Positions 463 to 15,355 of a stretch of 20,000 nt of DNA are shown one piece after another; position 1 is the first letter of the stretch, and each line of letters begins with the position of its first letter. The notes under the pieces are model-generated. The model did not search any database. It was not told the DNA's origin and saw only the letters and a program-made list of their open reading frames with translations. A program made the position numbers and the translations under genes. Origin of the DNA: an uncultured virus (IMG/VR IMGVR_UViG_3300000156_000110) (lineage: Duplodnaviria; Heunggongvirae; Uroviricota; Caudoviricetes); IMG/VR virus record IMGVR_UViG_3300000156_000110, positions 47,019-67,018 of that record. One strand, given 5' to 3'.

Positions 463-1112
463 GCGATGACCGCCGAGTAGATAGCACGCGCCCACAACGC
501 ATCACCGAGGGCGGTGTGGCGATCGAAGTCCCTCGGGTCGACACCGACGGCACGGCTCAGCGCCTCCGACTTCCACGGTGGCTTCGCGCCAGTAGGCGAC
601 TCGTTCAGCTCATGGTTGGTCCAGGGGTGCTCAAGGCAATAGTTGGATGGACCGTCCTCGGTGTTCATCATCCCGAAGCGACATGCAGCGGTCTTGGTTC
701 GCAGATCCGCTGCGTTCCAGGCGACGCGGCGACCGGCGAGCCATCCCGCGGCAAGGGCCTCCACGTCGATCAAGTGGTAGTGCCACATTGGGCACTGACC
801 ATTGGCCCGCAGGAGCTTGCGCAGGCGTTCCTCGTCGAAGGAGATGACAGCACCGGCCAGGTGGAGCCCGTCGGTGAGACGGGCGAACGCTGAGGCGAAA
901 GTCCAATGGTCAGTGAGCCCCTCTTCCACCGCTCGCCGACTTCGATAACCGTTGATCTTGAGTGCCATAGGGTCAGCCCGGCCGAGGTCGACAGGGAGCT
1001 GCCAAACATGCCGGTAGTCGTCGGGCGTGATGAGCGCCACTTCCCAGATCTCATGCAGTTCGGGATCAAGGCCAGTGGTTTCCGTGTCGACGAAGCAGAC
1101 GTTGTCGAGCAT
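459..1112 (-). CDS. DEDDh 3'-5' exonuclease (DnaQ-like)
   Basis: ExoI FVDTETTGLD, ExoII ISFDEERL, ExoIII HTALGDA; ATG at 1112 in TGATG overlap with AGGAGG RBS. Confidence 0.9.
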   Translation of the reverse strand: MLDNVCFVDTETTGLDPELHEIWEVALITPDDYRHVWQLPVDLGRADPMALKINGYRSRRAVEEGLTDHWTFASAFARLTDGLHLAGAVISFDEERLRKLLRANGQCPMWHYHLIDVEALAAGWLAGRRVAWNAADLRTKTAACRFGMMNTEDGPSNYCLEHPWTNHELNESPTGAKPPWKSEALSRAVGVDPRDFDRHTALGDALWARAIYSAVIA

Positions 1113-1564
1113 CAACAACCTCCTGCCCGGCCTGCCTCGGCCAGTTGAGCGGCGAGAGCCGTTACTTCGCCCTGGACATATTCAACCGTCCTGTAGGTGG
1201 TGCCCCAATGTCCCGGAATGCTGATGTCCGGAAATGGAAACCCGGGCACCAAGTCCCCGGCGTGGCCGCAGTCGAACCCGAACCACCACACATCGCCTGA
1301 TTCGCCCGGTTGAGGAACATGACAGATGCCCTCACCTTCCTCGCCGTCGCAACTGGCGGCATAGGTCAACCCCCCATGCACGTCGACTTGCTCGGCACAC
1401 TCGGAGTATCCGAGGCCATGCCAGGGATGGCCGGGAGCGACCGCTACATAGCCGCAGAGCATCCCAAGGCGGGCACGCCTGATGAGGCACGGCATACCGG
1501 TGGCCTCGTCGCGCCACTCGACGCGATCGGGTTCGTCGGTCCAGGGTCCGCTCGTTATGGACAT
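1112..1564 (-). CDS. conserved phage hypothetical protein (CGYV / VHGGLTY / GFDCxH family), 150 aa
   Basis: Motifs LCGYVAV, VDVHGGLTYA, WWFGFDCGHAGD, YRTVEYV typical of a widespread uncharacterised phage family; ATG at 1564 in TGATG overlap with GGAGG RBS. Confidence 0.8.
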   Translation of the reverse strand: MSITSGPWTDEPDRVEWRDEATGMPCLIRRARLGMLCGYVAVAPGHPWHGLGYSECAEQVDVHGGLTYAASCDGEEGEGICHVPQPGESGDVWWFGFDCGHAGDLVPGFPFPDISIPGHWGTTYRTVEYVQGEVTALAAQLAEAGRAGGC

Positions 1565-1740
1565 CAGTGGCCTCCCGTCCATGTCGCCTCGGCCAACCCG
1601 GGCATGGCACATAACTCAGTGAGCATCCGAACCTCGTGGGGCGTGGGAGGGACCGACACCTTCATGGTGACCGATCCCTCGGGAGTGGTCGCGATCAGGT
1701 GCGGGTGGCCGACGAAGGGTGCCGCTGTCTCGGCGCTCAC
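1564..1740 (-). CDS. hypothetical protein (58 aa)
   Basis: GTG at 1740 overlaps stop of the 35-aa peptide and its own stop overlaps the next ATG; 3' part of ORF 1564..2331. Confidence 0.55.
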   Translation of the reverse strand: MSAETAAPFVGHPHLIATTPEGSVTMKVSVPPTPHEVRMLTELCAMPGLAEATWTGGH

Positions 1741-1844
1741 AGGACCATGCTCCAAGTCCAGACCACCAGAGCCGCGAGCATGGCACCGATGAACACCAGG
1801 AAAATCACCACTGCGACATCGCTCGGGTCGAGCCCTCTCGCCAT
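1737..1844 (-). CDS. 35-aa single-TM peptide MARGLDPSDVAVVIFLVFIGAMLAALVVWTWSMVL (not in ORF track)
   Basis: AAGGAGG RBS, ATG at 1844 just downstream of promoter P1, stop at 1737-1739 coupled to the next GTG. Confidence 0.7.
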   Translation of the reverse strand: MARGLDPSDVAVVIFLVFIGAMLAALVVWTWSMVL

Positions 1845-1910: not shown

Positions 1911-1944
1911 GGGACGGTCCCCACTCGTCAGCGACGACCGTCCC
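1911..1944 (-). terminator. GC-rich hairpin, probable terminator or 3' stem of small RNA
   Basis: GGGACGGTC/GACCGTCCC perfect 9-bp stem, extended by G-U-containing pairs on the minus strand; no U tract. Confidence 0.55.
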
Positions 1945-2036
1945 TACCAGCCGCCCCGCTTGACTAGTCATCCGTTCCGAGCACTCGGTCGGATCGGTAG
2001 CCCCTGGGAAGTCGCGACCCCACGGTGACGGCTGGT
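1911..2036 (-). ncRNA. putative structured small RNA (~126 nt) expressed from P2
   Basis: Predicted +1 (2036) coincides with the first base of a 10-bp closing stem (2036-2027 with 1955-1946); internal nested stems; G-U pairs favour the minus strand; no credible ORF. Confidence 0.55.
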
Positions 2037-2042
2037 GCTCGA

Positions 2043-2071
2043 ACCCTACCGCACCGGGGTGCGTTACGCAA
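2043..2071 (-). promoter_or_regulatory. promoter P2: TTGCGT-17bp-TAGGGT with palindromic operator in spacer
   Basis: Minus strand TTGCGT AACGCACCCCGGTGCGG TAGGGT, immediately after the MTase stop. Confidence 0.75.
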
Positions 2072-2912
2072 TCAGTTACCAGGAACCGCCACCGCCTCGA
2101 CGACCTCGAAGAACATCGGGCCCACGCGTTGACGGGCCAGTTCGACATTGCGAACGTCAAGGTCGATCCCGATAGCCGACCGGCCGTGCCCGTGAGCGAC
2201 CGCCAGTGTGGTCCCTGATCCGGCGAAGGGATCGAGAACCAGACCATTACGCCAGGCGCTATGACCGCAGTCGGTCCAGCCAGTCGTGATGCGCTCGGCG
2301 CTGACGATGGCCGCCGGTCGAGACCCGCCATTGCGACCAGTCGTGCGGCTAAGAGCCTCGGGCGCCTTGTTCGGGAACTGGTGGTAGATGTCGGAGTGTG
2401 ATCGGTTGGCCGCGTACTCCGGCGTGTCCTCAGTGATCCGTTCGCTCGGTCGTCCGCATTCCAGGCACACCCGTCGAGGACACATCGCCTCGATCGGGCG
2501 AATCAGGAGGGCCTTGGGCCAGGTTGCAAAGTGGGCTCCGGGGTAGCCCTCGGTCGGGATCTCCCACCAGTCGAGGGGCGGCGCGCCGGCGGGGTTGGAC
2601 GGCACTCGGTTGTCGTAGTTGGCGGTTTGGACCTCGGCCGGATCGCCCTTCTTCGACCCGTTGGTTGTGCGGGTTCGCTGGTCGATGGCAACGGTCCGCA
2701 CGGCGTCGAGGTCGAAGTACCTCGTCCGCCCGGTGCAGGCCACCAACATCTCGGAGGTCGCTGGACGGAACTTATCCGCCAGTTCGCCAGGCGCAGGATT
2801 CGGGCGGCACCACCGCACGACATTCCGCACCCGCCATCGGTCGGTCGTGCGTCCGGTGAGCGGGTTGAACCCATAGACCATCGCCCACGATGTATCGCAC
2901 GGTCGCGCTCAC
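2072..2912 (-). pseudogene. beta-class N4/N6 DNA methyltransferase with internal deletion/frameshift (catalytic motif IV absent)
   Basis: ORF 2072..2881 has HFATWP and SAM-binding VLDPFAGSGTT...IGIDL but no (D/S)PP(Y/F); a typical N-terminus MSATVRYIVGD starts at 2912 in another frame and stops at 2772. Confidence 0.7.
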
Positions 2913-6490: not shown

Positions 6491-7150
6491 TTACGTCTGG
6501 ATTCCGCGCTTCGCCAGTGCCTTTTCGGCTGCCTCCACGAAGTCGATGATCTTGCGGGCGGAGTTGAGTAGCTCGGGTCGGGTGGTTTCCTCCCCCCACT
6601 TCTTGCCCGTCCCGACGCTGTCGAGCAGGCCCAGGGCGCGCCCCAAAAGACGGTCGGCGGCGGAGGGGTCGGGGCGCTTGGCGATGCCCGGAGCTTGGGT
6701 GGTCGCAGCCGCAGAAATGCGCGGTGGTCCAACTCTCTGACCTGCACCTTTACCAGATTCACCGCGCACTTTTGGAGCCGCGGCGCGAGGGCTCGCGGCC
6801 TGCTTGGCCGCGGCTTCGGTGACCGCCTGAGCCGCCGGTGTGGTCTTGTTGGCCTTGGCCCGAGCTTCGATGGCCAACGCCTCCCGCGCCTTCGCGAGCG
6901 CGGAGTAGGCCGACGACCGACTCGTCCATCCCCATCGGTTGAGGCAGTAGTCGGCGAAGGACTTCTGTCGGGCTCGGTAGAGCTTGCGGTCATGGATCTC
7001 CACGAAGGCACCGAACACGGCCTTGCCGAACTTGTCGGTAGCCCGGTCGATTTGGTTTTCAAGCTCCCGCAACCGGTCGGCCTCTTCGCGACTCATCGTC
7101 TCGATCGGTACCTCGGTTTTGGCGTCAGGGAAGGCCAGTTCTTGGGTCAT
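6491..7150 (-). CDS. putative DNA-binding phage protein (EIxDxxLYR...FxDYCxxRWG motif) with Ala/Lys-rich linker, 219 aa
   Basis: FVEIHDRKLYRARQKSFADYCLNRWGWTSRSSAY resembles a common HTH-like phage domain; ATG at 7150 in ATGA overlap, GAGGAG RBS. Confidence 0.7.
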   Translation of the reverse strand: MTQELAFPDAKTEVPIETMSREEADRLRELENQIDRATDKFGKAVFGAFVEIHDRKLYRARQKSFADYCLNRWGWTSRSSAYSALAKAREALAIEARAKANKTTPAAQAVTEAAAKQAASPRAAAPKVRGESGKGAGQRVGPPRISAAATTQAPGIAKRPDPSAADRLLGRALGLLDSVGTGKKWGEETTRPELLNSARKIIDFVEAAEKALAKRGIQT

Positions 7151-9753
7151 TTTCTCCTCGTCTTGAGTTGGCGGGCTGCCATTTTGGCGTCGATGGCTTG
7201 GGACACATCGCCCTTGCTCCAAGTCGGGTCGACCTGGATGCCGAGCTTGCGGGCGAAGGCGAGTTGCTTATCAGAGGGCGGGGTCTTGCGCCATGGGGCG
7301 TCGCGAGCGGTCAACTGCGGGGCCTGCCGACGCACGTAGTCCTCCGCCGCTCCCTGCGCCCACTCCAAGTCAGCCGCCCTCGCCAGCTCCACGTTGCGAC
7401 CCTTGACCCCGTACCCGGCAGGCATCGAGGTCGCGACCCACTCGTCACCGGACTTCTCCAACAGCACCATCCGCTGCGGCAGCATCACGGCATACCCGGC
7501 GTCGACGTGGACCCAGGCAATCGGAGCCTGCTTGAGCTTGCCAAGCAGCTCGATCTCCTTGGCCTGTAGAACGCCCATCGCGACCTGCTTGGCTCGCATG
7601 GCGACCAACCCGTCGCTCACCTTCGCCGTACCGTTCTCGAAACCCTTGGGGTCGATGCCGAGCAGGGTGGGGACAGTGCAGAGCTTATGTTCGGACGCCA
7701 CCCCCACACAGTCGAGGACGAGACAGTCGGTCTTGTCCACGTGCTTGCGAGTACCTCGTCCAATAACTTGGGCGTAGAGAGCCCGGGACTGAGTTGGGCG
7801 GGCCATCACGATGCAGTCGACCCGCGGGTTGTCGTAGCCCTCCGTGAGCACCCCGCAGTTCGTCACCACGTCGAGGTCACCGCGAGCGAAGGCGGCCAGG
7901 GTCCGGCGTCGGTCGGCGATGTCCTGAGCACCCCACACCACGCCGGCGCGGATACCCGAAGCACCGAAGGCGTCGGCGGTGGCTTGGGCGAGGTCGACAG
8001 TCGGGCAGAACACGATCGTGCGCCGCCCGATGGCGTGCTCCATCCATGAGGCGACGACGTGGCCGGGAGCATCGGCGGCTTCGAGCGCGGCCCCAAGAGC
8101 ACCGTCCTGGTAGTCGCCCTTGGACTTCGCGACCGTCCCGAGGTCGACGGCCAACTTGACCTGGATGCCTCGGAGGTCGCAGAGATAGCCCGCCTCGATC
8201 CCCCACCCGAGGTCGTAGTTGAACACGATCTCGTCGAAGACGGAGTCGAGTCCGGTCTTGTCGCCTCGGTCGGGCGTTGCGGTCACCCCGAGTAGGAGAG
8301 GTTGTGGCGCGCCATCCACCGGCCCCATCGGGCCGCACCCGAGGGCATTGAGGACGGTCCGGTAGGACGCCGCGCTCGCGTGGTGGGCCTCGTCGACCAC
8401 CACCAAGGAGAACGGGTTGCGCTGGTGACGATGGATGAGGTTCCGCAGGCGTCGAGGGACCGAGACGGTTTGGATCGAGGCGACCACGACATCGGACCAT
8501 CCCTCGTTGCGCTCCGCCTTCACGATCCCGATGTCTCGATCCGGGCAGACCCACGACACCTTCTCGGCCGCCTGGGAGATCAGTTCGTCGCGGTGGGCGA
8601 GGATGAGCGTTGGCCCAGGAGTCTCGGCCGCCATCGTCCCGAACAGGATTGTATTGTGCGTGACCACATGGCCCACGGTGACGAAGAGTCCGTCCGCGGC
8701 GTCGACCTTGATGCAGACGGTCTCAGTCGGGTCGATCGGCTCAATGGCAGAGATACGGCGAACCGGCCCCGTCCGAGGTTTGGACGACCACTTGGCCGCC
8801 TTACGCTCCAAGAGGAACGGATTCATCCCGAACCGCAGGATAACGTTCGCACCCCAAGGGTCCGCATAGATGGTTGCGATGCCGCCTAAAGACTGAACCA
8901 GTTCAACCATATCCTGGGCGAGTCCCATTGAAGAGGTCGAGAACTCAACGAAGCTCTCCATATGTCCGTCGCAATCCATGAGTCCACGGAGAAGGTCGAG
9001 TCGTTGTTCGATGGATGACTCCAAGAAGTTGCGCGGGATGCGCTTCGTTGTCAGGTTCAAGTCCAGATCAACGACTCCGGCCCAGAAGCGATGATCCGGC
9101 GTGTCTCGGGCGAAATCCGCCGGACTCGGCACCTGACAACGGCCACCCCGTCTCCCTTGTAGGAATGTGACGAGGGGAACCAAAGCAAGATGCTTCGGGA
9201 GGCGCTGTTCCAGTTCGACGACCATCCCGCTCCCGCCCGAACCATCACTCAGCAGGACACCGAGCACGTATGGGTCGATCGACAATGGGGTGTCCGGTCT
9301 CTCGACTGGCTGCGTCACCGGTATCCGCCACGACACATAAGTGTCGGCAAGTTCCTCGGTGCTGAGCGTCCTCCACGAGCGTCCGAGCTTGAGCATGGCG
9401 TCAGTGGTGACGGTCCAGAGATGATCGGCGTCGACCACGATCGAAACGCCATCTTCGGTGGTCACCCGGTATGCGGGTTGGAGTCCACGATGGAACACGC
9501 CCGTCACGGCCACGGGATGACCGTCGGCGCCGACGACCTGATCGCCTACGACGAGATCCTCCACCGGCCGCCAACCGTTCGCGGTCAGAACCGGAGTCCC
9601 GAGAGCGAGGCCCTTCCCGGCTCCCGTGAACGCAACCCCGAGTTGACGCTTGACTCCCCGGGCCTGAGCCTCGGCGATGGCATCGAGCGCCTGGCGTTGA
9701 TAGGGCCGAAGCTCGATCTTGGGAGGAGCGCCGCCGAGTGCGAGGGTGCTCAT
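7147..9753 (-). CDS. SF2 DEAH-box helicase (Res/Irc3-like) precursor containing an intein (868 aa; ~548 aa spliced)
   Basis: LRPYQ, TGAGK|T, ILAHRDELISQ, VVDEAHH, GVTATPDR, VLTEGYD, QVIGRGTR; ATG at 9753 in ATGA overlap. Confidence 0.93.
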   Translation of the reverse strand: MSTLALGGAPPKIELRPYQRQALDAIAEAQARGVKRQLGVAFTGAGKGLALGTPVLTANGWRPVEDLVVGDQVVGADGHPVAVTGVFHRGLQPAYRVTTEDGVSIVVDADHLWTVTTDAMLKLGRSWRTLSTEELADTYVSWRIPVTQPVERPDTPLSIDPYVLGVLLSDGSGGSGMVVELEQRLPKHLALVPLVTFLQGRRGGRCQVPSPADFARDTPDHRFWAGVVDLDLNLTTKRIPRNFLESSIEQRLDLLRGLMDCDGHMESFVEFSTSSMGLAQDMVELVQSLGGIATIYADPWGANVILRFGMNPFLLERKAAKWSSKPRTGPVRRISAIEPIDPTETVCIKVDAADGLFVTVGHVVTHNTILFGTMAAETPGPTLILAHRDELISQAAEKVSWVCPDRDIGIVKAERNEGWSDVVVASIQTVSVPRRLRNLIHRHQRNPFSLVVVDEAHHASAASYRTVLNALGCGPMGPVDGAPQPLLLGVTATPDRGDKTGLDSVFDEIVFNYDLGWGIEAGYLCDLRGIQVKLAVDLGTVAKSKGDYQDGALGAALEAADAPGHVVASWMEHAIGRRTIVFCPTVDLAQATADAFGASGIRAGVVWGAQDIADRRRTLAAFARGDLDVVTNCGVLTEGYDNPRVDCIVMARPTQSRALYAQVIGRGTRKHVDKTDCLVLDCVGVASEHKLCTVPTLLGIDPKGFENGTAKVSDGLVAMRAKQVAMGVLQAKEIELLGKLKQAPIAWVHVDAGYAVMLPQRMVLLEKSGDEWVATSMPAGYGVKGRNVELARAADLEWAQGAAEDYVRRQAPQLTARDAPWRKTPPSDKQLAFARKLGIQVDPTWSKGDVSQAIDAKMAARQLKTRRK
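8653..9612 (-). mobile_element. intein (320 aa) with LAGLIDADG homing-endonuclease motifs, inserted in Walker A; class-3 signature
   Basis: Starts GLALGTPVLTANGW, block B DADHLW, blocks C/E LGVLLSDG and LRGLMDCDG, block F TVCIKV, ends VVTHN/T. Confidence 0.92.
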
Positions 9754-10022
9754 GCCAGACGGAGCAGCCACACCGACACGGCGATAGTGGCCGCGACGAG
9801 CAACACGATGAGGCATAGTCGGACGGTGATCTGGATGGCGAGGCGGGTGGCGCTTAGCGCCCGTTCCGAACGAGTCGGAGGCTTCGGCTCCGATGGGACT
9901 CCGAAGAGGGCTTCACACAGTCCCCCGATGATGCCGCCAGTGGGTGCTGCGGAGGGGGAGCCCGAAGGCTTCCCCCTCACGGTCGCACTCCATGAGTCCT
10001 CGGAGAATCTGGGCGGACTCAC
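9750..10022 (-). CDS. hypothetical protein with C-terminal TM helix (90 aa)
   Basis: Coupled by 4-nt overlaps on both sides; hydrophobic C-terminus. Confidence 0.6.
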   Translation of the reverse strand: MSPPRFSEDSWSATVRGKPSGSPSAAPTGGIIGGLCEALFGVPSEPKPPTRSERALSATRLAIQITVRLCLIVLLVAATIAVSVWLLRLA

Positions 10023-11056: not shown

Positions 11057-11086
11057 AGTATAACCGCACCCGGGTGCGGTTCATTC
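11057..11086 (-). promoter_or_regulatory. promoter P3: -10 TATACT preceded by perfect 20-bp palindrome AACCGCACCCGGGTGCGGTT; -35 poor
   Basis: Palindrome 11062-11081, -10 at 11057-11062, upstream of the DUF932 gene. Confidence 0.7.
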
Positions 11087-12037
11087 CGACGGCGACGTAT
11101 CCGACATCTCCACTCGCTCCAACTCAGCGCACTCGGCGTGGTAGGGCTCGCCCTTGGCGTTGCCGGATGCGACTGCGGTGGGGTCGAAGATCGGCGTATT
11201 GCACCAGACACACTCCGGGTCGTTGGCTTCGGCAGGCGTATCGTCTGCCAACTGCACCACGAAAGCACCGGAGACGGCGACGATCTTGACCACGGCGGCC
11301 GGGTCGAGGTCGCCGAACCTAATACCGTCCAGTCCGGACCGCTCCTTCCACTCCCTCATCGCCTCCCGCACTGGCTCGGACAGTCCATGGAGGTATTCGC
11401 CTGCGGCCTTCCTGACCAAATCGACCGCAGGCGGTGCGGGAGGCGGAGGCGGCACATCGCGGTCCGATACTTCTTCAGCACTGACTTCGCCACTGCCGAA
11501 CAAGTCAGACGAAGCGCGATTCGTGGCCCTCGTCATGGCTGTGGCTGGAAGGTCGTGGCCGGGCTTCGAGAAGTGGACGAACCCATTGCAGTCCTCCAGG
11601 CAACAGGTGTGGCCGTTCCAGTTCACCTTCCCGCACGGCACCGAGCAACATCGTTCCGTGATGTCGCAGGCACCGAGCCCGTCCATGATCCGACCGTTCG
11701 GTGCCGTGGCTCGCATGACGACCTCGGCCCGGATGATCCGGCCGCGGTCGTCGCGCTCGTAGACGCGGTCGAGGATCTCGGTGGACACGCCGAACGCCAC
11801 CGCGAGCTTTCGCCATGCCGACTTCTTGCGGAAGGACTTCGAGCCGATCGACTGGTAGTCCTTGGGCACCAGGAGCCGATCGCAGAGGGCGACGTAGTCC
11901 TTGAACGACTGCTCGATCTCGGCCAGCGGCGCGACCGGGGTGACGAGCGAACCGTGGGAGAGGATCGGCGTCAGGTCGACGACCGTCGTCTCGATCGCTT
12001 CGGCTTCGGGTATGTCCTCGGTCTTAGTACGCGCCAT
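11081..12037 (-). CDS. putative ssDNA-annealing/recombination protein (Rad52/Red-beta-like fold by inference), 318 aa
   Basis: KKSAWRKLAVAF, RATAPNGR..DG.GAC, HDLPATAMTRATNRASSDL..GEVSAEE; adjacent to Gam-like gene; ATG at 12037 with AAGGAG RBS. Confidence 0.55.
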   Translation of the reverse strand: MARTKTEDIPEAEAIETTVVDLTPILSHGSLVTPVAPLAEIEQSFKDYVALCDRLLVPKDYQSIGSKSFRKKSAWRKLAVAFGVSTEILDRVYERDDRGRIIRAEVVMRATAPNGRIMDGLGACDITERCCSVPCGKVNWNGHTCCLEDCNGFVHFSKPGHDLPATAMTRATNRASSDLFGSGEVSAEEVSDRDVPPPPPAPPAVDLVRKAAGEYLHGLSEPVREAMREWKERSGLDGIRFGDLDPAAVVKIVAVSGAFVVQLADDTPAEANDPECVWCNTPIFDPTAVASGNAKGEPYHAECAELERVEMSDTSPSE

Positions 12038-13143: not shown

Positions 13144-13178
13144 TGTCAGCCTCCCTCACATACCCCCGGTTGGATCGG

Positions 13179-13199: not shown

Positions 13200-13202
13200 A
13201 CC

Positions 13203-13229
13203 AGTATACCGCACCGGGGTGCGCTACAA
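13203..13229 (-). promoter_or_regulatory. promoter P4: -10 TATACT with operator AGCGCACCCCGGTGCGGT; TTGTAG at short 15-bp spacing
   Basis: Minus strand TTGTAG CGCACCCCGGTGCGG TATACT at the tail/early-gene junction. Confidence 0.7.
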
Positions 13230-13231
13230 GG

Positions 13232-15355
13232 TCAGACGCCGCCCGACGTGAGGCCCGGGACCATCCCGACAGTGCCATTCACGGTGTCGGCCACGAGGGT
13301 GACCCGGATCAGTGCGACCTCGCTGGTCAGTAGCGCCAACGCCAAGTCCTCGCGCTGTTCGGTGACCGAGAACGGTTCGCGGGGTTGTCCCGCCCCTGGC
13401 GACTTCAAGCCCAAGTCGGGATGGATCGTGTCGTTGACTGAGTAGGCCCAATCGGGGGGAAGGATCATGCGCCGAGCAGATGCGTGGAAACTTGCCCCCC
13501 CGGATGGAGGAATGGTCGCGGCCGCTACCGCCGTCAGTTCATCGGGCATCATCGCCCAGGCATTGTTGACCGGCTGGGCGTCGGTTGGTGCGGTTCCGAG
13601 CGTGTCCACGATCACCGGATCGCCGTCGGCTTCGATGAGTGGGAGCACAACCGGGAACCCCCCAACCTGCGGCGAGTAGGTCACCGTGATCTTTCCCTCG
13701 CCCGAATTGGCTCCCTGGTTGTTGGTGACAGTGCCGAACTCACCAACCGAATAGGCGGTCGACCCTCCACCGCCACCGGCGGCCCCGAACCCGATCCGCA
13801 CCCCGCCGCCACCGCCGCCGCGGTATCCACCACCGCCCGCGCCGGCGCACCAACTCTCCCCGCCCGTCCCGGCAGTGAACTGCCGCCCGTTGCCGCCCTG
13901 CAATGGTGACCCATCCCGCCCGACCAAATCTCCCGCGCCACCGACTCCCGAATAGGTCTGACCACCACCCTGACCCCCCTCGGCATCGGCGGCTGCACCG
14001 CCATCCCCGGCGATCGGTCCGCCTCCCAACCCTCCGACACCGGGAACGTTTCCTCGCCCAGCCCCACCACCGCCACCAACGATGGCGATGATGTTCGAGG
14101 CACTCGTCCCGCCCCGATAGACCGCGCTGCCAGCCCCCCCGCCGCCGCCGAGAGCCAACGGCGATCCGTGCCCGGCGTCGAGTTCGCAGTCGCCGCCCGG
14201 AGCAGGACCGTCACCGCCCGAGCCCGCACTGCCCATTGAACCCGCCCAGAAGTGCAAGACCTCGCCGGGAGTGACCGGCATGTCTGCCTCGAACACTCCA
14301 CCAGGACCGCCCGCCACCAATGCTGACTCCCCCGCCGCACCCTCGACGGTGATGTGAACGGAGAATACGTCCGTCGGAACCGTCCATGCCTCCTGAACAC
14401 CGGGGAAATATTCGTCGGTCTTGGAGAATGTCTGCTCGCTGACCCTGAAATATTGAAAGCTCGGCCCGAATGAAGGGTCGACGTAGAACAATACAAACCG
14501 CCCGTCGCTCAGGGCCACTATCCGACCGACCGCATCCACGTCAACCGGCTCGGACAGATATGGCCCATCGGGAAGCAGGACCGTGCCCTGGTTCGGGCCG
14601 ATGAGACGAACCGTGTTGCGGGTGAAGGCGCCGTTGACATCGTGGTGTCGGCTGAGCATCACCGACCAGGCGTCGGCCAACCGATACCGGCCCTCGCTGT
14701 CGACACCGTTGGCAACTCGGCCCGGTTGTCCGGCCTGAACGCTCACCGGCACGTCGATGTAGGGATCGTCCTCATCAGGCACCATGTAGTCGACCGTGAA
14801 GACCGTGAGGGCCGGGAGCGCCCCGCCTTCTTCGGGAAAATGGACGAGCCGGAAAGTGGCGGCCCCCGATTTGTTGATAGCTGGGAGGGTGGAAAACCGA
14901 TATCCGGGGAAGTAGTAGCCGACCTCGGGCTGTGTCCTGACGACCTTCCCATTGAGTGAGCCGATGCCGGGATGGACCTCGGCCTCGATGTAGACGGGAT
15001 CGGGTCGGGAATGGTCGATCCGAATGATCCCCACTGATGCGAGGAACACCGGTGGACTCGATGAGGCATAGGGGTTGAAGACGAACAGGAACCGGCTCGC
15101 ATCGACCTGGGTAATCCCGGCCCAAATCTCCCCAAGTGACGAGATCGGGTTCGTCGGCCCCCCGTCGTGGTAGGCGAACTCGGGCGTCACGACCGGTGCG
15201 GCAGTCACATGCATCAGGGTGACTCGACGCTCATAGCTGCCTTGGTCAGTCGACGTAAGGACTATGGCGTAGTCCTTGTCGACCCGCAGGAGGATGGGCG
15301 GATAGAAGGAGGTCGGGTAGCTCACCTTGTTGATGAGGGTGATGCCTTGGCTCAC
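13232..15355 (-). CDS. glycine-rich minor tail / receptor-binding protein (707 aa)
   Basis: GTG at 15355 overlaps upstream stop (GTGA); WTVP..V...VEGAAG then GGGGGAGS/GGGGGYRGGGGG polyglycine domain; last gene of the tail module. Confidence 0.75.
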   Translation of the reverse strand: MSQGITLINKVSYPTSFYPPILLRVDKDYAIVLTSTDQGSYERRVTLMHVTAAPVVTPEFAYHDGGPTNPISSLGEIWAGITQVDASRFLFVFNPYASSSPPVFLASVGIIRIDHSRPDPVYIEAEVHPGIGSLNGKVVRTQPEVGYYFPGYRFSTLPAINKSGAATFRLVHFPEEGGALPALTVFTVDYMVPDEDDPYIDVPVSVQAGQPGRVANGVDSEGRYRLADAWSVMLSRHHDVNGAFTRNTVRLIGPNQGTVLLPDGPYLSEPVDVDAVGRIVALSDGRFVLFYVDPSFGPSFQYFRVSEQTFSKTDEYFPGVQEAWTVPTDVFSVHITVEGAAGESALVAGGPGGVFEADMPVTPGEVLHFWAGSMGSAGSGGDGPAPGGDCELDAGHGSPLALGGGGGAGSAVYRGGTSASNIIAIVGGGGGAGRGNVPGVGGLGGGPIAGDGGAAADAEGGQGGGQTYSGVGGAGDLVGRDGSPLQGGNGRQFTAGTGGESWCAGAGGGGYRGGGGGGVRIGFGAAGGGGGSTAYSVGEFGTVTNNQGANSGEGKITVTYSPQVGGFPVVLPLIEADGDPVIVDTLGTAPTDAQPVNNAWAMMPDELTAVAAATIPPSGGASFHASARRMILPPDWAYSVNDTIHPDLGLKSPGAGQPREPFSVTEQREDLALALLTSEVALIRVTLVADTVNGTVGMVPGLTSGGV

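Follow-up and report, generated by a model that had tools for sequence, protein, structure and literature searches.

A 227-nt gap in the genome of an uncultured tailed virus (Caudoviricetes; IMG/VR record IMGVR_UViG_3300000156_000110) raises the question of what is made from a promoter that no gene closely follows. The gap separates an N4/N6 DNA methylase gene from the gene of a 35-residue hydrophobic peptide, both on the minus strand. It lies in the 20,000-nt stretch that was analysed, called the window here (bases 47,019-67,018 of the 67,018-bp record, which has a 52-bp terminal repeat). An earlier note on this DNA had assigned the promoter, named P2 below, to a compact structured non-coding RNA. 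The reading that we prefer, and put forward tentatively, is that P2 is dedicated to a stable non-coding RNA of ~126 nt (2036 to about 1911) that would act by its shape.

Layout of the gap and fold of the minus strand

The gap runs without slack from the methylase stop codon to ATG 1844. In the direction of transcription, the stop codon is followed by P2 (29 nt), 6 nt, the putative RNA (126 nt), 6 nt, a second promoter named P1 (30 nt), and a 30-nt leader with AAGGAGG ahead of the ATG. The methylase stop TGA (2074-2072) abuts the -35 box of P2 and is the upstream limit of the gap. P2 (2043-2071, minus strand) consists of TTGCGT (2071-2066), a 17-nt spacer (2065-2049) that holds the palindrome CGCACC-CC-GGTGCG, and TAGGGT (2048-2043). 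In the same way, P1 (1875-1904, minus strand) consists of TTGCGA (1904-1899), an 18-nt spacer with a copy of the palindrome, and TACACT (1880-1875); TCCAACC, AAGGAGG and ATG 1844 come after it. The two promoters form a 24-nt direct repeat, 88% identical, at a spacing of 167 bp. Seven nucleotides after the -10 box is the usual start distance of sigma-70/SigA-type promoters, and TANNNT is the actinobacterial form of that box. A2036 lies 7 nt past the -10 box of P2 and is the first base of the closing helix described below; P2 is predicted to be a well-formed promoter with its start site at this base. Read by hand on the minus strand, the positions that the earlier note had given for the promoter boxes, the +1 and the helices were all correct, and the second promoter that it had placed ahead of the next genes is present.

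The minus strand from 2036 to 1905 folds with −73.2 kcal/mol in ViennaRNA, and the helices and hairpin that had been proposed from the letters are those of the minimum free energy (MFE) structure, the helices also being those of the centroid. The first part is a 91-nt three-way-junction domain (1946-2036, minus strand; MFE −44.8 kcal/mol). It is closed by the pairing of ACCAGCCGTC (2036-2027) with GGCGGCTGGT (1955-1946), a helix that lengthens to 14 bp across the bulged A2026. The short arm of the junction has 4 bp and the 8-nt loop UCGCGACU (2015-2008), while the long arm is composed of GGCUA/UAGUC, AUCCG/CGGAU and CCGA-GUGC-UCGG, with a 3x3 internal loop, two bulges and the GUGC loop. One base past the junction begins a 34-nt hairpin (1911-1944, minus strand), made of 9 bp, a 1x1 loop, 5 bp with two G-U pairs and a 4-nt loop, which reaches −26.3 kcal/mol alone. 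Few bases stay unpaired, namely the 8-nt loop, a 4-nt loop, the 3x3 internal loop and a few bulges.

A single structure accounts for 31% of the ensemble and the mean pair probability is 0.96. Forced opening of the closing-helix strands or of the 5' arm of the hairpin costs 15-19 kcal/mol, with no alternative within 15 kcal/mol, and the same fold is retained in the 132-nt and 237-nt contexts. The 8-nt loop contains a 6-nt palindrome, UCGCGA, through which loop-loop dimers are conceivable. The sole perfect complement of this loop on the phage sense transcripts is 7093-7086, which comes after a candidate ATG (7096) immediately behind the helicase gene; by chance alone, one 8-mer of this kind is predicted.

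The earlier note had expected the segment to fold better than dinucleotide-shuffled controls, and it does so. With 200 such shuffles (mean −56.4 kcal/mol, standard deviation 3.8), the 132-nt minus strand has a z score of −4.40 and none of the shuffles is as good. The plus strand of the same 132 nt reaches −54.3 kcal/mol, compared to −73.2 kcal/mol, with a z score of −0.96 and 35/200 shuffles as good. Five of the 46 pairs of the fold are G-U on the minus strand, which agrees with the wobble pairs that had been claimed for the transcribed strand. As the plus strand folds much worse and the G-U pairs are those of the minus strand, the signal is at the RNA level and on the gene-bearing strand.

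Own-genome controls were made, since a GC-rich phage genome folds well throughout. The GC-corrected residual of the segment corresponds to a z score of −3.40, which is reached by 5 of 8,920 segments of 130 nt (15-nt grid, both strands). Among 600 random 126-nt segments of the genome, the candidate is matched by one in folding energy, by one in the dominance of a single structure and by four in low ensemble diversity, which places it in the top 0.2-0.7% on these three measures. The fold is unusual, although not unique by energy alone, and it is set apart by its well-definedness together with its placement.

The gap carries no coding signal, and P2 has no ribosome site close behind it; the earlier note had seen neither a ribosome site nor an ORF within the segment. 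Frame-specific GC bias is absent across 2070-1880 (codon positions 0.57-0.73), whereas the flanking genes show a third-position excess. A six-frame tblastn search of the gap gave nothing below E 0.03 in 194 loci (709 kb), and the open reading frames (ORFs) that overlap it, including a frame of 255 residues, have no Pfam match at E<=1.

A recurrent promoter and palindrome module

The palindrome of P2 is not confined to this gap. With up to two mismatches, GCACCCCGGTRCGGT gives 5 matches at 4 sites in the window against 0.29 expected, and 0/200 shuffles reach 5. Genome-wide, CGCACCC has 13 minus-strand sites; eight are clear copies, and one a doubtful copy, of a module formed by (A)ACCGCACCC, 3 nt, T(G/A)CG(G)(T) and then directly a hexamer. 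This hexamer fits TANNNT in most copies, the palindrome being in fixed register with the box. All module copies lie in gaps ahead of minus-strand genes. One of them (13202-13232, minus strand) stands ahead of the replication-gene block, with a leader that opens with a 5' hairpin, and another (11058-11090, minus strand), with a perfect 9+9 palindrome, stands ahead of a DUF932 gene. Counting the first of these, two family promoters other than P2 have leaders that start with a small hairpin of 5-8 bp. In the other copies with downstream sequence read, a ribosome site and a start codon follow within ~60 nt, and one copy looks leaderless; P2 is the sole copy among those read through that has no ribosome site and start codon close behind.

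Folded as RNA, the palindromes give only weak hairpins (−8.3 and −5.8 kcal/mol). For this reason they were rejected as RNA terminators and are read as DNA sites for a regulator, which may be either a repressor or an activator. Pfam and PHROG scans of the phage proteins found no DNA-binding protein other than WhiB. Of the operator-controlled promoter of the earlier note, the palindrome is supported, as it recurs at other promoters; a repressor operator is not established, WhiB being the only DNA-binding protein found. This recurrence makes it plausible that P2 is co-regulated with further phage genes. The earlier note had taken the partners to be early genes, which is not established either: module copies also precede genes near the lysis and head regions. 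In the contigs scanned, a degenerate promoter pattern matched 27, with one match each and no contig with the whole regulon, while the perfect palindrome matched four viral loci, all of them ordinary hairpins in other contexts.

Two short motifs occur near these promoters. CGATCC[AG]ACCG has three minus-strand copies and none on the plus strand (simulated mean 0.25; 1/300 simulations reach 3). All three lie within ~55 nt downstream of a family -10 box, one of them inside the RNA at 1996-1986. In the two messenger RNA leaders, the motif gives a 7-nt loop, AUCCAAC, whose 5-bp stems show compensatory differences (CCCCG/CGGGG versus AGUCG/CGACU), and in the RNA it belongs to the long arm. The P2 unit may derive from a duplicated promoter-leader cassette, or a factor that recognises the leader motif may also meet the RNA. 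The pattern was noticed post hoc, and we give it little weight. The second motif, TCCAACC, has 14 minus-strand and 6 plus-strand copies, and about 8 of the 14 precede a ribosome site and start codon by 3-17 nt. Copies lie at 13174, 12060, 1867 and 105 in the window and at 40002, 24130, 23552 and 18180 in the genome (G000:C1), and it looks like a recurrent leader motif.

In a comparison chosen after the fact, the P1 promoter and palindrome (1905-1875) matched, at 19/20 bases and allowing one gap of 2 nt, the antisense of the helix-45 region in the 3' end of a 16S ribosomal RNA of the genus Mycobacterium (locus L199). The alignment score of 28 was reached by 0/500 permutations, and the other three module copies tested were not significant. 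For the RNA itself, a mimic of the 16S 3' end was rejected: its best local alignments to the same 16S, in either sense, score 19 and 18 versus shuffle means of 20.3 and 19.1.

Relatives and competing explanations

Several searches were made for relatives of the RNA. A blastn search (word 11) of 1700-2400 against 50,697 phage records gave no match, and on 90 loci blastn-short and nhmmer returned nothing beyond chance words of 12 nt (E 3.5). A covariance model was also built, with the one sequence put into the alignment twice. Run on 100 loci (47 viral, 53 from metagenomes) and on 42 entire viral records, this model recovered no sequence but its own (159.9 bits), and the next scores were 15.7, 15.2 and 13.1 bits, with E about 1. 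Scans with exact and degenerate patterns of the RNA gave 0 matches in viral contigs and 0 in genome contigs. With Rfam 15, 0 matches were obtained on the whole window at gathering thresholds and 0 at E<=10 on 1800-2150, both strands, in agreement with the earlier note, which could not assign the RNA to a known family. ARAGORN found 0 transfer RNA or transfer-messenger RNA genes in the window.

The relatives of the methylase reach at most 51% identity over the full length in viral contigs (10 loci) and at most 60% in metagenomes (53 loci), and they carry other sequence downstream. Relatives of the neighbour gene P0003 have at most 55% identity, and the best viral relative of the portal protein is 34% identical. 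By these comparisons, the phage is an orphan lineage without close relatives among the records searched. Five of the metagenome methylase relatives have, right after the methylase stop, a different and nearly invariant folded non-coding stretch of ~185 nt (L101:1871-2055, L103:1966-2150, L108:3287-3471, L110:2849-3032 and L111:3287-3471). It ends in a hairpin and T8, has no Rfam or transfer RNA match, and is too invariant to show covariation.

According to the reading that we prefer, the RNA would be locked from its first base in the 14-bp helix that closes the three-way junction and would end in a 15-bp hairpin, both ends thus being buried in duplex. Ends held in helices favour the stability of an RNA towards 5'-end-dependent and 3'-exonucleolytic decay. 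The RNA would accumulate as a discrete, nuclease-resistant species, whose 3' end would result either from termination at the hairpin or from trimming of longer transcripts up to it; as the ends are buried, a stable species is predicted even if the hairpin stops only exonucleases and not the polymerase. P1, six bases beyond the RNA, would restart transcription for the downstream genes. Because nearly all bases are paired and one fold dominates, action by shape is likelier than antisense pairing, and the RNA would interact with a protein of the phage or the host, binding or titrating it, rather than work as a base-pairing small RNA. A stand-alone RNA is favoured because a full promoter precedes a segment without a ribosome site and a second promoter directly follows the hairpin. 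The simplest explanation for this second promoter is that most transcripts from P2 end at the hairpin.

A more far-reaching proposal, which we regard as doubtful, is that the RNA is the founding member of an undescribed actinophage class whose RNAs run from promoter to hairpin, act by shape and are switched on together with other palindrome-controlled promoters. As part of the same proposal, it would bind or titrate a protein, such as a host defence or RNA-processing factor or a phage regulator, and might dimerise via UCGCGA.

A number of points weigh against a dedicated, stable RNA. Of the two parts of a canonical intrinsic terminator, a GC-rich hairpin and an immediate U-rich tract, the 34-nt hairpin provides the first and lacks the second; GCTCAC follows it, and the tail is GCUCACUUGCG. 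It was not called in a terminator scan, so the terminator of the earlier note was not borne out. Mycobacterial RNA polymerase, as reported by Czyz et al. (2014, PMC3993855), needs the U-tract for termination. Taken by itself, the 91-nt junction stands out only moderately (z −2.64, 3/200 shuffles; plus strand z −0.91), and its −44.8 kcal/mol is reached by 509 of 33,464 segments of 91 nt (1.5%, 4-nt grid). In this grid, closure by 6 or more terminal pairs is seen in 41 segments, and nine of the 41, the candidate included, have E<=−40 kcal/mol. Four other loci of the 67-kb genome, some within genes, fold equally beyond the GC expectation. Covariation support is absent because no homologue was found, and this is the main weakness of the case. 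Additionally, P2 and its start are predicted, no protein partner was identified, a look-up of sequencing runs for transcripts gave none, and the case is built on one sequence.

The same absence of a U-tract speaks for the closest competitor, which we consider possible and to be taken seriously, although less probable than a dedicated RNA: transcripts from P2 would pass the hairpin and P1 into the downstream genes, and the 5' module would work in cis as part of their leader. It could stabilise the transcript by shielding its 5' end against 5'-end-dependent RNases, or be a put-like element by which RNA polymerase resists pausing and termination over the long minus-strand array. Read-through agrees with the U-tract requirement of the mycobacterial polymerase (PMC3993855), with the hairpins that also open the leaders of two other family promoters, and with the fact that nearly all downstream genes are on the same strand. 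A precedent is putL of HK022, ~70 nt with two stem-loops, which lies downstream of an early promoter and, in the description given in PMC9378689, works with no protein factors. However, P1 would be redundant behind such a leader, and in the centroid of the longer (237-nt) transcript the module does not pair with the ribosome site. There is no sequence or family link to put, and a unit of 126 nt with 46 pairs far exceeds the 5-8-bp hairpins of the other leaders.

That the fold only punctuates operons is unlikely. It would then be a barrier that ends the replication/methylase operon, as a terminator, an insulator or a 3'-end stabiliser, with no role for the RNA itself, and the palindromes, 167 bp or ~16 helical turns apart, would serve the cooperative binding of a regulator. 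The fold indeed stands directly behind a stop codon, the palindromes are direct repeats at this distance, and the five metagenome relatives of the methylase have their different ~185-nt fold, with hairpin and T8, at the same position. Nevertheless, P2 has full -35 and -10 boxes that follow the spacing rules of the family, which would be needless in a mere operator copy. The closing helix starts exactly at the predicted +1, and a terminator needs one hairpin, not a three-way junction.

We find it quite unlikely that the fold is due to chance, as a GC-rich spacer that was left by promoter duplication and happens to fold well. The orphan character of the sequence is in line with such an origin, and so are the share of 91-nt segments that attain the junction energy, the 9/33,464 that are closed with E<=−40 kcal/mol, and the four other loci that deviate equally from expectation. 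It is opposed by the shuffle result on the minus strand next to an unremarkable plus strand, by the rank of the segment among genome segments for energy, dominance and ensemble diversity, and by the coincidence of the ends of the fold with a promoter-defined start and the next promoter.

A transcriptional riboswitch presents, in this order, a promoter, a junction closed by a helix also named P1, a hairpin and the gene. The order of elements in the gap resembles this class, so that the junction could be an aptamer sensing a ligand or a factor and the hairpin its expression platform, but a riboswitch or attenuator is very improbable here. There is no Rfam match even at E<=10 and no U-tract, no competing antiterminator was found (constrained folds are 15-19 kcal/mol worse, with no alternative helix involving the hairpin arms), and a promoter sits between the supposed platform and the gene. 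Translation of the gap, as the open frame 2331-1564 (255 residues) or as a small ORF, is scarcely credible: one minus-strand frame is open through the whole gap, but the GC bias of a coding frame, a ribosome site and a Pfam match are all missing, the 255-residue frame has no tblastn match in the 194 loci, and it overlaps the methylase gene by 260 nt.

Three further candidates were rejected. Type III antitoxin RNAs (ToxI-like) consist of a unit of ~34-36 nt repeated in tandem and precede the gene of an endoribonuclease toxin. In 1600-2300, the only direct repeats are the two promoter copies and one 11-mer pair, and the next gene encodes the 35-residue hydrophobic peptide, which has no family. 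Type I antitoxin RNAs are antisense to the messenger RNA of a small hydrophobic toxin; the RNA described here is upstream of the peptide gene on the same strand, not antisense to it, and the 237-nt fold contains no pairing to the ribosome site of the peptide. For a replication origin with iterons, no iterons were found, and the fold is strand-specific.

Genome setting and known counterparts

The GC content is 63-66%, and nearly all credible genes are on the minus strand. Along the direction of transcription, the window begins with large tail-type proteins and continues, from 13,222 down, with a replication block that encodes Mu Gam, DUF932, a helicase split by a Hint/LAGLIDADG intein, DnaD-like and DnaC-like loaders, WhiB, an HNH endonuclease and the N4/N6 DNA methylase. 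The helicase gene with the inserted intein occupies 7147-9816 (minus strand), and a LAGLIDADG domain is also found in an 881-residue protein adjoining the portal gene (L154:12406-15051, minus strand). The methylase gene (2072-2881, minus strand) matches Pfam N6_N4_Mtase with E 1.3e-16 and a PHROG DNA methyltransferase, and has a high in-frame third-position GC.

Downstream of the gap follow the 35-residue peptide, a small ORF, a PHROG 2164 protein and a DnaQ-like exonuclease, with a C5 methylase and an RNA ligase further downstream, beyond the window. The peptide gene (1737-1844, minus strand), the first one served by P1, had been listed as an ORF at 1737-1904 with an upstream TTG start; we place its start at ATG 1844-1842, 8 nt after AAGGAGG. 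The peptide has no Pfam or PHROG family match. The PHROG 2164 protein (166 residues, 1112-1612, minus strand), two genes downstream, belongs to a family of unknown function. It has 191 relatives in viral contigs; further ones, prophage-like and 31-54% identical, are present in assemblies of Vicinamibacterales, Mycobacterium, Bradyrhizobium and Paraburkholderia.

Two genes are RNA-repair-like. One is an RNA ligase (L155:1162-1866, minus strand; PHROG 14301, E 3e-64), and the other (L153:13968-16433, minus strand) encodes an 821-residue fusion of a Zeta/AAA_33 kinase fold, a 2H phosphoesterase of the '2'-5' RNA ligase' superfamily and an XkdF-type protease. Strong folds are also present elsewhere, as a 16-bp perfect hairpin near a Mu F-like gene (G000:C1:21650-21790) and as a long hairpin with UUUUC behind it, located between the genes of the 881-residue protein and the portal (G000:C1:32217-32405). 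Protein family scans describe a phage with a Mu-type portal and siphovirus-type tail genes, and a Pfam scan of 66 proteins revealed neither an integrase nor a repressor-type domain. Given the WhiB gene, the host is presumably an actinobacterium.

Among known phage RNAs, the pRNA of phi29 has ~120 nt, its own promoter, a closing helix that joins the 5' and 3' ends, a three-way junction and loops that pair intermolecularly, and is in Rfam. The likeness to the candidate, whose 8-nt loop holds the palindrome UCGCGA, is one of shape only: the candidate has no Rfam match at any threshold, and the phage has a Mu-type portal and a siphovirus-type tail, not those of the phi29 type. The put RNA of HK022 (~70 nt, two-armed) is transcribed behind an early promoter and makes the polymerase terminator-resistant (Hwang et al. 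2022, PMC9378689). Like putL and putR, the candidate is a compact folded RNA right behind a phage promoter and ahead of a long same-strand array. Unlike it, the HK022 element as described there has two stem-loops without a long closing helix, and it acts in cis on the RNA polymerase of E. coli. The likeness is one of position and size; the two share no homology, the host group is different, and the candidate is followed by a second promoter, which a cis-antiterminator would not need. With the canonical intrinsic terminator, as presented in PMC3993855, the candidate has in common a GC-rich hairpin with which a transcription unit ends; it differs by the missing U-tract and by the preceding 91-nt junction, needless for a terminator.

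The nearest counterpart is found in the mycobacteriophages L5, D29 and StarStuff, where non-coding RNAs that are both abundant and stable are transcribed from the early promoter Pleft (Dedrick et al. 2017, PMC5712189). According to this account, ~90% of the Pleft transcripts end before the first gene, and the RNAs come from a ~500-nt region at the genome end and are processed into species of 100-400 nt. Like these RNAs, the candidate would be the non-coding first product of a phage promoter, which here is a predicted one with a recurrent palindrome. The hosts of the Pleft phages are high-GC Actinobacteria, likely the host group of the present phage too, and the Pleft RNAs, known since 2017, still have no known function. 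In contrast to the Pleft RNAs, for which expression, stability and toxicity were demonstrated, the candidate is a predicted, compact unit of ~126 nt located mid-genome, with its own follow-on promoter. The Cluster A Pleft region had no sequence match to it in the blastn search of 50,697 phage records. The candidate is best read as a positional analogue, and not a homologue, of the L5/D29 Pleft RNAs.

The kind of element, a phage promoter with a folded non-coding first product, is already known, while the sequence is in no described family. At present its value is that of a well-defined candidate, not of a finding. Phage structured RNAs with their own promoter are few and most are of unknown function, and a compact, cleanly bounded three-way junction would be easier to work with than the 500-nt Pleft regions. 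The window also shows a genome-wide promoter and palindrome regulon in an uncultured lineage without close relatives.

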